Assembly: GCA_019844455.1 (NCBI GenBank)
Contig: GCA_019844455.1_3938.2
Reading direction: 5' to 3' (one strand)
Length of the DNA stretch: 18,746 nt
Source of the DNA: a phage
Positions within the stretch are counted from its first letter, which is position 1, and each line of letters begins with the position of its first letter. Both the position numbers and the translations under genes were made by a program. This document shows positions 15,501-17,111 of this stretch, one piece after another. Under the pieces are notes generated by a model. It made no database searches and was not told the DNA's origin. It was given only the letters and a program-made list of their open reading frames with translations.

Positions 15501-17111
15501 ACGTCTATAAAGAGACTCTATACAATCCCTTTCCTTTCCTTCCTAGAATCTATCCCACTAATTCGATAGAGACTATCTCATACCTTAAAAAGCAATAACT
15601 CTATAGTCTACTCTATAACCTCTTATCAAATCAACTTAAATATAAGCCCATAACCCGAAAGGGAAGGGCAACCATTTAAACGCTCTATAAAGCCCTATAA
15701 CAGCCTTATCAACCTAACTTAAGCAATCATATTAACCCACTCTAAAAAGCCCTTTATAGAGCTTCCCAGAGCCTTAAAAGAATCTTATAAGGGTGTGAGC
15801 TTTATCATCTCGTTAGCTATCTTGTGAACTACTAAAAAGGGCTTGTTAGTGTCTTAAAAGTATGTTATAGGGGCTATAAAGTTACTTCAAAGTTACGTAA
15901 AAGAGGCTATAAAGTTACGTAAATGCTAGCCCCCTTAACATTTTCTTAACAATTTCTTAACAATCCCTACATAGTTATGCTTTTAAGGCACTTGTTAGAG
16001 ACTTGTTAGCCCCTTGTTAAATCTCTGTTAAGACCACGTAAAAGCCTTGTAAGAGTCTTTAGCATAGCCTTTAAAGCCTCTGTAAAGCCCTATAAAGAGG
16101 TGTCTGTATAGTTGGGGTGTAATTACTAGGAAGAGACTTAAAAGAGCTTACAAGGAGCTATAGAGAGCTTTTAAGAGGGCTATTTAGAGAATCACTAAGA
16201 GGGAAAGGGAACGATAAGAAAAGAGAAGTTGTGTTTGTAACCAACCACTGTGACCATGTTAATAGCTTGTTAAAAAGATTAAACACTTGTTAGAAACTTG
16301 TTAATTATCTTAACAAAATAACCCTTTAAAATTAACTTGTTAGCTCTTGTTAGTCATCTGTTAAGATTCTGTAAAGCCTATGTATCAACTGTTAAGAACT
16401 TGTTACAACCTTGTTAGTTCTGTTAAGAATCTGTTAAGACCTCTGAAGAGATGTTAAGAGTATGTAGTAGCTGTTAAGAGATTGTTAAGGATATTTTAAA
16501 ATTCTGCAAAGGGATGGTAAGGGAGCTGTTAAGGGCTACCAAGCAGATATACACCCTCAACAGATATTTTTGAGTTCCTTCAAAGACCCTAAAAAATGAC
16601 TTGGTAGTCCTATTTTATAAAAATTTTAAAATTCTGAATAATTACCTAGACAGTCTTTTAAAAATACAGGTAGAAACAGGCTTATAAGATACCTTGTTAG
16701 TACCGTGTTAGACCTTGTGAGATAAGGTCTGTAAAGATATTCCTGTTAAGTTTGTTAAAACAGTCTATATAGAGGCTTAGTAATACCTAGTGAACACCTA
16801 TAGAGGGTAACATAGCTGACATAGAGATTAAGAGGTGTATAGGAGCTTCTAAGAGGGTATAGAGGGATGACTAAGGTGATTGTATAGGCTGTTAAGAAGG
16901 CTTGTTAGAAGAGTGTTTAGAGGGCTTATTAAAGGGCTAGTTAGAAGGCTTATACAGGGGGGCTATTAAGACCACTAGATAGTTACTAAGATACTATATA
17001 GTACTATATAACTATATATAGAGAGTAAGATTAAGAAGGATGTTAAGAAGGATAGATATTTTATTCACATATGATGGTGACCCAGAGGTTGGAACAACCG
17101 ATAAAATTTTT
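15501..17111. other. 1.6-kb ORF-free, repeat-dense non-coding region between convergent terminators
   Basis: The ORF track shows no ORF of 60 aa or more in any frame between the array terminator and the minus-strand terminator. Sequence is dominated by 8-mer words of the form CT....AG (cttgttag, ctgttaag, ctataaag, ctgtaaag, cttataag). Confidence 0.7.
15842..16908. repeat. helically phased array of a degenerate 8-mer (CTTGTTAG / CTGTTAAG / CTGTAAAG; reverse complement CTTAACAA)
   Basis: Copy starts mapped by hand: 15991, 16002, 16013, 16025, 16046, 16069, 16080, 16090; 16266, 16286, 16297, 16336, 16346, 16358, 16369, 16389, 16399, 16410, 16420, 16431, 16471, 16482, 16526; further copies to 16901. 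Spacings are mostly 10-12 bp or multiples. Reverse-complement copies at 15934, 15945, 15956 and 16309. Confidence 0.65.

Follow-up and report, generated by a model that had tools for sequence, protein, structure and literature searches.

Gene-free DNA between convergent terminators

The region of interest, positions 15501–17111, is a 1.6 kb stretch lying between two gene arrays in the analysed window (the whole 18,746 nt of phage DNA presented above); we refer to it here as the island. By its sequence, the source phage is a Felixounavirus (i.e., Felix O1-like). The window carries rIIA (ORF 967–3333) and rIIB (ORF 3413–4522) in the same gene order as Felix O1, the genome of which is opened immediately upstream of rIIA in its record (PMC3185647).

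On the left, the plus-strand gene array ends at an intrinsic terminator at 15472–15500, where the 3' arm of an 11-bp stem (hairpin 15472–15499) runs into a T-run at 15494–15500. A second hairpin, GGGGCT/AGCCCC, lies upstream of it at 15448–15463, and the 68-nt fold that includes both plus-strand hairpins (15438–15505) has a dG of -27.4 kcal/mol and a z-score of -4.4. On the right, the minus-strand gene module ends at a minus-strand intrinsic terminator at 17121–17146, consisting of a 10-bp hairpin (17146–17121) followed by a T-run. Both terminators are real, in agreement with the initial annotation, which described the segment as lying between convergent terminators. The homologous gap in Felix O1 runs from ORF23 (+) to ORF24 (-), at record positions 12306–13927, and is unannotated there. 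Four transcription units have been described for Felix O1: 97–131/1–23, 96–80, 40–24 and 41–79 (PMC3185647); given the first and third of these, the 23/24 junction is a point of convergence. The six proteins that flank the island matched only families of unknown function in PHROGs and Pfam scans, and promoter-like matches inside the island are weak (9 of 12 positions), with no strong promoter standing out.

The only ORF of at least 40 aa within the island is a 42 aa frame with a GTG start (16158–16286, minus strand), in agreement with the original claim that the segment contains no ORF of 60 aa or more. The claim that it is rich in stop codons also holds: 8.6% of the codons in the six frames are stops, whereas upstream coding windows of 1,611 nt average 6.4% and do not exceed 7.7%. 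This density matches, however, the first-order Markov expectation of 8.8%, and among sequences simulated from the segment with such a model, 78% likewise contain no 60-aa ORF. The absence of long ORFs is predicted by base composition and is, on its own, unsurprising. The features of the island that do go beyond chance are its repeat content and its conservation.

The initial annotation had suggested asking whether relatives carry the same non-coding DNA or genes at this locus. The island matched 257–269 phage records, nearly all of them Felixounavirus and related Ounavirinae, and it recurs as ORF-free, non-coding DNA in more than 200 independent assemblies of relatives. Full-length identity is 86–92% within Felixounavirus and 75–77% to Mooglevirus and Suspvirus. 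Identity over the aligned positions of the island is ~92% for Felix O1 and UAB_69 and ~80% for Moogle, SUSP1 and Sf19, while in the adjacent gene (15189–15437) it is 61–68% for the same genomes; the right-hand flanking gene has no nucleotide match to the other genera. The expectation that so much non-coding DNA should have a function is borne out by this excess of conservation over the adjacent gene. Conservation spans the direct terminal repeat described below and both of its flanks, and the weak spots (15488–15587, 16338–16387 and 16888–16937) are sites of indels.

Some annotation pipelines have called genes here: automated annotations place 'hypothetical proteins' of 26–49 aa in the island, six of them in a single relative. 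On that basis one might regard the island as a decayed or mis-assembled coding region, as a set of small-protein genes, or as a long non-coding RNA. We consider this very improbable. Firstly, island substitutions relative to five relatives are spread evenly over the three phases (e.g., 108/91/105 vs Moogle), whereas the adjacent gene displays an about two-fold excess at third codon positions (e.g., 25/21/45). Secondly, no small ORF is conserved; each of the six ORFs of at least 25 aa is intact in at most 5 of 10 relatives. Thirdly, the ORF-free structure is the same in all of the > 200 assemblies mentioned above. The coding signal that the initial annotation named as evidence against its reading was thus looked for, and neither codon phase nor a conserved ORF was found. 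A decayed or mis-sequenced coding region is ruled out, and the small hypothetical proteins are not supported. The proposal of a long non-coding RNA, likewise made at the outset, gains no support either: a scan of 15300–17300 against Rfam at E ≤ 1 places no family inside the island (one sub-threshold Phe-leader match falls on the minus-strand terminator), and transcription converges on inward-facing terminators on both sides. These terminators belong to the flanking genes, and the island does not form a promoter-to-terminator unit of its own.

Position of the direct terminal repeat

Several GenBank records of relatives begin or end within the island. Six of them (I14.1, CRP22, ZX4221, NBEco005, ECP2307 and NBEco004) do so at position 15929 (query position 429), and EcSzw_1 and pEP20 begin at 16539/16540 (query 1039/1040). 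Exact terminal duplications are present in I14.1 (PP892526; 581 bp) and CRP22 (OQ708377; 579 bp), and both map to 15929–16540. These coordinates, which are those of the PhageTerm-type records, give the direct terminal repeat (DTR) a length of 612 bp in this phage, and UAB_69 (OL656108) carries a 618 bp repeat_region labelled as a DTR that corresponds to 15927–16542. The outer limits of the DTR, 15927–16542, rest on the UAB_69 feature and the ends of Erwinia phage M7, so that the repeat measures ~612–616 bp. These borders are derived from homology (± 2 nt) and placed on a window that is a single-copy assembly, rather than being read from this phage's own sequencing reads or virion DNA.

The M7 genome provides a view from another genus (Kolesnikvirus). 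It contains an exact 444-bp terminal duplication, and the ends of this duplication fall at 15926 and 16542 in the alignment. The part of the M7 junction that can still be aligned is limited to about 120 nt, in a sole segment (16427–16553) that spans the right DTR border. The left end of M7, TTAGCCACTTTTACA, aligns with (C)TAGCCCCCTTAACA of this phage; beyond its right DTR end M7 reads GTAGATATACA, where this phage has GCAGATATACA.

Terminal repeats have also been reported in published work on relatives. The UAB_Phi87 DTR was measured at 608 bp by Bal31 digestion and run-off sequencing, and the TerL proteins of UAB_Phi87 and Felix O1 fall in a DTR cluster (PMC4837284); in the present phage, the TerL gene is located outside the window. 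PhageTerm gave a DTR of 581 bp for Pr103Blw (PMC8303462) and classed I14.1 as a DTR phage (PMC11737134), and short terminal repeats of Felix O1 were inferred by Whichard et al. from PFGE size (PMC3185647). Two further records were dropped as markers of the terminus: the UAB_Phi87 record (JN225449) opens in the tRNA region, with UAB_69, I14.1, CRP22 and M7 being used instead, and BPS15Q2 starts 14 nt from the border and carries no terminal duplication.

Since several independent lines of evidence put the genome ends inside the island, the island is identified, by homology, as the concatemer junction holding the DTR, i.e., the genome ends of a Felix O1-like phage. Among the roles listed in the initial annotation (replication origin, packaging or genome-terminus site, centromere-like site, host-protein decoy and long non-coding RNA), that of a packaging or genome-terminus site is the one supported, with the DTR of relatives mapping inside the island at 15927/15929–16540/16542. 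That Felixounavirus phages have a DTR is already known, and at least one GenBank record annotates it as such. The assembly is circularly collapsed and holds the DTR once; virion DNA would, by homology, hold it twice, with one copy at each end. In the virion, the left unique flank (15501–15926, 426 nt, non-coding) would then adjoin the right-end copy on its inner side, and the right unique flank (16543–17111, 569 nt, also non-coding) the left-end copy in the same way. In the linear virion the adjoining gene modules read outward and stop at their terminators before the ends.

The DTRs of other Ounavirinae (UAB_Phi87, 608 bp; UAB_69, 618 bp; Pr103Blw, 581 bp; M7, 444 bp) are homologous in sequence to the one described here, have the same borders and are equally non-coding. 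They occupy the same site between ORF23-like and ORF24-like genes, and their lengths differ by multiples of ~11 nt. There is no essential difference between them and the present DTR, of which the window holds one collapsed copy.

Phased octamers and border boxes

The island is dense in CT-N4-AG, an octamer that is quasi-palindromic and rich in W/K at its centre, with TGTTAAG as its core (e.g., CTTGTTAG, CTGTTAAG, CTGTAAAG, CTATAAAG and CTTAAAAG). It occurs 65 times, compared with 11.8 ± 3.2 expected and a maximum of 21 among 500 Markov simulations. The related word TGTTAR, i.e., TGTTA(A/G), occurs 27 times (1.9 ± 1.4 expected), at a density of 16.8 per kb in the island vs 0.9 per kb elsewhere in the window. 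Distances between pairs of octamers peak at 10–12, 21–23, 31–34 and 42–44 nt, giving a period of ~10.7 nt, or one helical turn. AA dinucleotides also show an 11-bp peak, level with the maximum of the coding controls, and we do not claim strong intrinsic curvature.

The octamers are arranged around the two DTR borders. The left flank is C-rich on the plus strand and contains 16 CT-N4-AG octamers, mostly CTATAAAG, CTTAAAAG and CTAAAAAG; its segment 15588–15838 retains 0.81–0.92 identity even to other genera. The DTR opens with the left border box TAGCCCCCTTAACA (15927–15940, plus strand), which is near-invariant across an alignment of 11 sequences from Felixouna-, Moogle- and Suspvirus. Overlapping it at the left DTR edge are three tandem 11-nt units at 15934–15966 (minus strand; CTTAACAtTTT, CTTAACAATTT and CTTAACAATCC; period 11, 95% match), which constitute reverse TGTTAAG sites (CTTAACA at 15935, 15946 and 15957). 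Octamers are thus in reverse orientation at the start of the DTR, and from 15991 onwards almost all are forward. A first forward array (15980–16190, plus strand) holds 16 CT-N4-AG octamers at spacings of 10–14 nt or 21–23 nt, with words including CTTGTTAG, CTGTTAAG, CTGTAAAG and CTATAAAG. A second forward array, of TGTTAAG-type octamers, extends from 16286 to the right DTR border at 16540 (plus strand). Near its start lies a perfect palindrome, TTGTTAA-TTATC-TTAACAA (16298–16316), which is a head-to-head pair of the core site and falls within the most strongly conserved block of the DTR (16288–16338; identity 0.93 and 0.87).

At the end of the DTR (16528–16542, plus strand), the right border box is GTTAAGGGCTA, which reads TAGCCCTTAAC as its reverse complement; CCAA comes after it. 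Read inward from either border, the DTR opens with the same box: TAGCCCCCTTAACA on the left and, as the reverse complement and set back by 2–4 nt, TAGCCCTTAACA on the right. In the alignment of 11 genomes from three genera, the conserved sequences are TAGCCCCCTTAACA at the left border and GTTAAGGGCTACCAA|GCAGATATACA at the right one. The latter element, GCAGATATACA, lies directly outside the right border (16543–16567, plus strand), with a second CAGATAT 18 nt downstream; it is invariant in 11/11 aligned sequences, and M7 keeps GTAGATATACA. It also falls in the sole segment that can still be aligned with M7. We regard it as a candidate recognition or cleavage element. The right flank is G-rich and contains 18 octamers as well as two 12-nt tandem arrays (16886–16951 and 17031–17053). 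Across the island as a whole there is a strand asymmetry, with a C-rich left flank and G-rich right two-thirds.

Comparison with relatives demonstrates that this organization persists while its length changes. Each of the 11 sequences compared (the window segment and its ten relatives, from three genera) contains 58–68 octamers, with 58–63 in the ten relatives. Among relatives, indels of at least 8 nt in the array-dense core are mostly of 10–12, 21–24 or 31–33 nt, and these 11-nt-unit indels therefore produce the series of DTR lengths (579, 581, 608, 612 and 618 bp). The 1.44-kb junction of M7 is beyond alignment except for the ~120 nt mentioned above, and yet its architecture is kept: TGTTAAGA occurs 12 times, with reverse sites in the left half of the DTR and forward sites in the right half and the right flank. 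The M7 left flank is filled by a different word, CTTCTAAG.

Indels of whole 11-nt units are typical of replication slippage, and the octamers are only slightly more conserved than the spacers between them (0.88 vs 0.83 in all relatives; 0.76 vs 0.73 in other genera). Both observations would fit a functional DTR in which the arrays and flanks are by-products, namely slippage-prone filler or a buffer against end erosion with no specific binder. The remaining evidence makes this reading quite unlikely. The whole island is more conserved than the adjacent gene, and its octamer number is held at 58–68 across three genera. The core word and the orientation layout persist in the otherwise unalignable M7, and the arrays are imperfect and positionally conserved rather than recent expansions.

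A search of IMG/VR for TGTTAAG-N4-TGTTAAG returned Ounavirinae junctions together with unrelated contigs. The unrelated contigs contain either single chance matches or 11-nt iterons of their own, and for that reason they were set aside as a guide to island function. No description of the internal anatomy of the island (the 1.6-kb layout, phased octamers and border boxes) was found in the literature searched, which covers no more than the presence of the DTR and its length; a PhageMaP preprint on Bas63, a cryo-EM paper on Bas63 and a comparative-genomics paper on Felixounavirus are silent on the island.

A role for the island as a replication origin was among the initial proposals. Here, the island would be, or would also contain, an origin in which the octamers are iterons for a phage initiator (for example, an octamer-binding primase-helicase such as P4 alpha) and the AT-rich stretches an unwinding element. 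The arrays and the modest AT peaks would fit: direct and inverted short repeats are densely packed at about one helical turn, and AT content reaches only 73–74% at 16301–16400 and 16601–16700, compared with about 65%. The right flank contains one perfect DnaA-box-like sequence, TTATTCACA, at 17061, although a single match is at chance level. Among the unrelated viral contigs, the same heptamer makes up arrays of 11-nt iterons that lie next to AT tracts and resemble origins, and the secondary origin that T7 has near its left end also counts in favour. Other observations speak against an origin. DnaA boxes occur in the window at chance frequency (29 vs 26.7 expected), the IHF consensus site is absent from the island, and no initiator-like gene was identified next to it. 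The island lies where transcription units converge, and the divergent junctions of Felix O1, 40/41 and 96/97, would make better origin sites (PMC3185647). Finally, the non-coding character of the locus is already accounted for by the DTR borders. An origin role is disfavoured; we consider it unlikely, if marginally less so than passive filler.

Proposed role in packaging

These observations as a whole are best accounted for by a Felix O1-like concatemer junction that contains the DTR and whose octamer arrays probably serve as packaging-recognition sites; we assign this explanation a probability of roughly 0.85. In T7-type phages, the terminal repeat is duplicated during packaging such that each end of the chromosome receives one copy. 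A similar scheme is proposed here, in which (i) the terminase would recognise the junction in replicated concatemers during packaging, (ii) it would cut at the two DTR borders, which carry mutually inverted copies of the border box TAGCCC[CC]TTAACA, and (iii) the DTR would be duplicated, providing every packaged chromosome with a copy at both ends. The ~65 octamers, helically phased through the DTR and both flanks and pointing inward from each border, would be the target of a DNA-binding protein of the phage, which would mark the junction, wrap or bend it, and bring the nuclease into position. By analogy with other packaging systems, the octamers are most likely binding sites for a packaging-recognition protein, and this protein may be a small-terminase-like recognition factor. 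No small terminase has been recognised in Felix O1 (PMC3185647).

A broader version of the packaging proposal is that the entire 1.6-kb island, beyond the DTR, acts in cis as one nucleoprotein platform, with mirror-image arrays occupied by a cooperative putative binder that is conserved in Ounavirinae. We put this forward tentatively, and with rather less than even odds. If it is true, the binder could be the missing equivalent of the small terminase or a factor linking packaging to replication, and the island would rank among the known packaging-recognition regions of phages with the greatest size and the highest density of sites. Evolution by 11-nt units would, in addition, explain how the DTR can vary between 444 and 618 bp with its helical phase kept.

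The location of the island has several practical consequences. It gives annotators the true genome ends; most Felixounavirus records have an arbitrary opening, and in them the island is unannotated or filled with spurious small ORFs. For phage engineers, it marks 1.6 kb that should not be disturbed. The conserved phased arrays provide a handle on how the junction is recognised in Felix O1-like phages, in which a small terminase is not recognised, and the organization into phased octamers, the unit-wise evolution and the mirror-image border boxes are of modest interest as a lead to the recognition protein.

Among known systems, iteron origins of the P4 type share with the island the use of octamers in both direct and inverted orientation. 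In satellite phage P4, the octamer of ori and crr (TGTTCACC) occurs in direct and inverted orientation and is bound by the alpha protein. The island differs from such origins in its convergent transcription; DnaA and IHF sites are not enriched in it, and no initiator gene was identified next to it.

Closer in kind are the recognition sites of other packaging systems. The R-sites of lambda cosB are bound by gpNu1 and the pacL and pacR boxes of SPP1 by G1P; in both cases, multiple phased sites lie beside the cleavage positions. The island resembles these in having many short, helically phased sites on both sides of the putative cuts, an arrangement that would suit wrapping by an oligomeric recognition protein. 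In cosB and pac, however, a handful of sites are spread over 100–300 bp and the small terminase is known, whereas the island has ~65 sites over 1.6 kb, two borders ~612 bp apart and no recognised small terminase.

The closest architectural analogue is the T7 concatemer junction, where a short exact DTR (160 bp) lies within ~1 kb of non-coding DNA and a short, A-rich word with a terminal AAG recurs in arrays next to and inside the repeat. No settled function is known for the T7 junction arrays. The two junctions are not homologous in sequence, and T7 1–520 holds a single CT-N4-AG. They also differ in their setting: the left end of T7 carries the promoters A0, phiOL and A1–A3, while the island has terminators on both sides. 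In T7 1–520, the word HTAAAG occurs 17 times, including a run from 176 to 333 at 13-nt spacing; the period is thus 13 nt in T7, as opposed to ~10.7 nt in the island.

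Intergenic modules and other features of the plus-strand gene array

Nearly all gaps separating the small plus-strand genes at 9700–15190 contain a conserved module, in which a GC hairpin (GGGGC..GCCCC or GGGGAGGGAA..CCTTCCC) is followed by a near-identical leader ending in CCTAAACTGGAGATTCAAAAATG; examples lie at 10150–10240, 10525–10615, 11126–11215 and 12198–12285. A second class of module, found in the gaps at 11836–11930, 12688–12790, 13631–13725, 14795–14860 and 15122–15190, starts with a promoter-like TTGACA box. In Felix O1, the counterparts of the modules of 9700–15190 are direct repeats of 57 bp and 39 bp, for which the genome paper lists no function (PMC3185647).

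The intergenic gap at 14064–14265 is unusually long (200 nt). It contains two closely spaced TTGACA boxes, together with three octamers (one CTTAAAAG, two CTTTATAG) of the CT-N4-AG type that populates the island, the ORF-free segment between convergent terminators. A possible reading of this gap is a cluster of early promoters with a vocabulary in common with the island. Further upstream, 8175–8960 (+) encodes a 261-aa protein that matches the Macro (ADP-ribose-binding) domain family (Pfam PF01661) at E 2.4e-07. This protein, which has no connection with the island, might play a part in counter-defence.

The island heptamer in unrelated viral contigs

TGTTAAG, the core of the island octamers, also occurs in 11-nt tandem arrays of unrelated viral contigs in IMG/VR, next to AT-rich or TATATATA tracts. 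One such contig (L035) carries five copies of GTTCTTAACAA at 7664–7718, and in another (L089) the segment 489–745 contains ten sites in mixed orientation (TGTTAAG/CTTAACA). These two arrays look like origin iterons.

Terminal repeat borders and two database records

Both borders of the direct terminal repeat, at 15927–15929 and 16540–16542, lie 2 nt farther outward in the UAB_69 and Erwinia phage M7 annotations (run-off-sequencing type) than in I14.1 and CRP22 (PhageTerm-type ends). The offset could be either a method artefact or a genuine property of the ends.

GU169904.1, named Staphylococcus phage SA1 (147 kb), holds an 85%-identical copy of the enterobacterial Felix O1-type island at 135472–137009; this deposit probably represents a mixed assembly. 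The GenBank taxonomy of PP892526.1 (Escherichia phage vB_EcoM_I14.1) is Demerecviridae/Tequintavirus; by its own sequence and its announcement paper (PMC11737134), this phage is a Felixounavirus.
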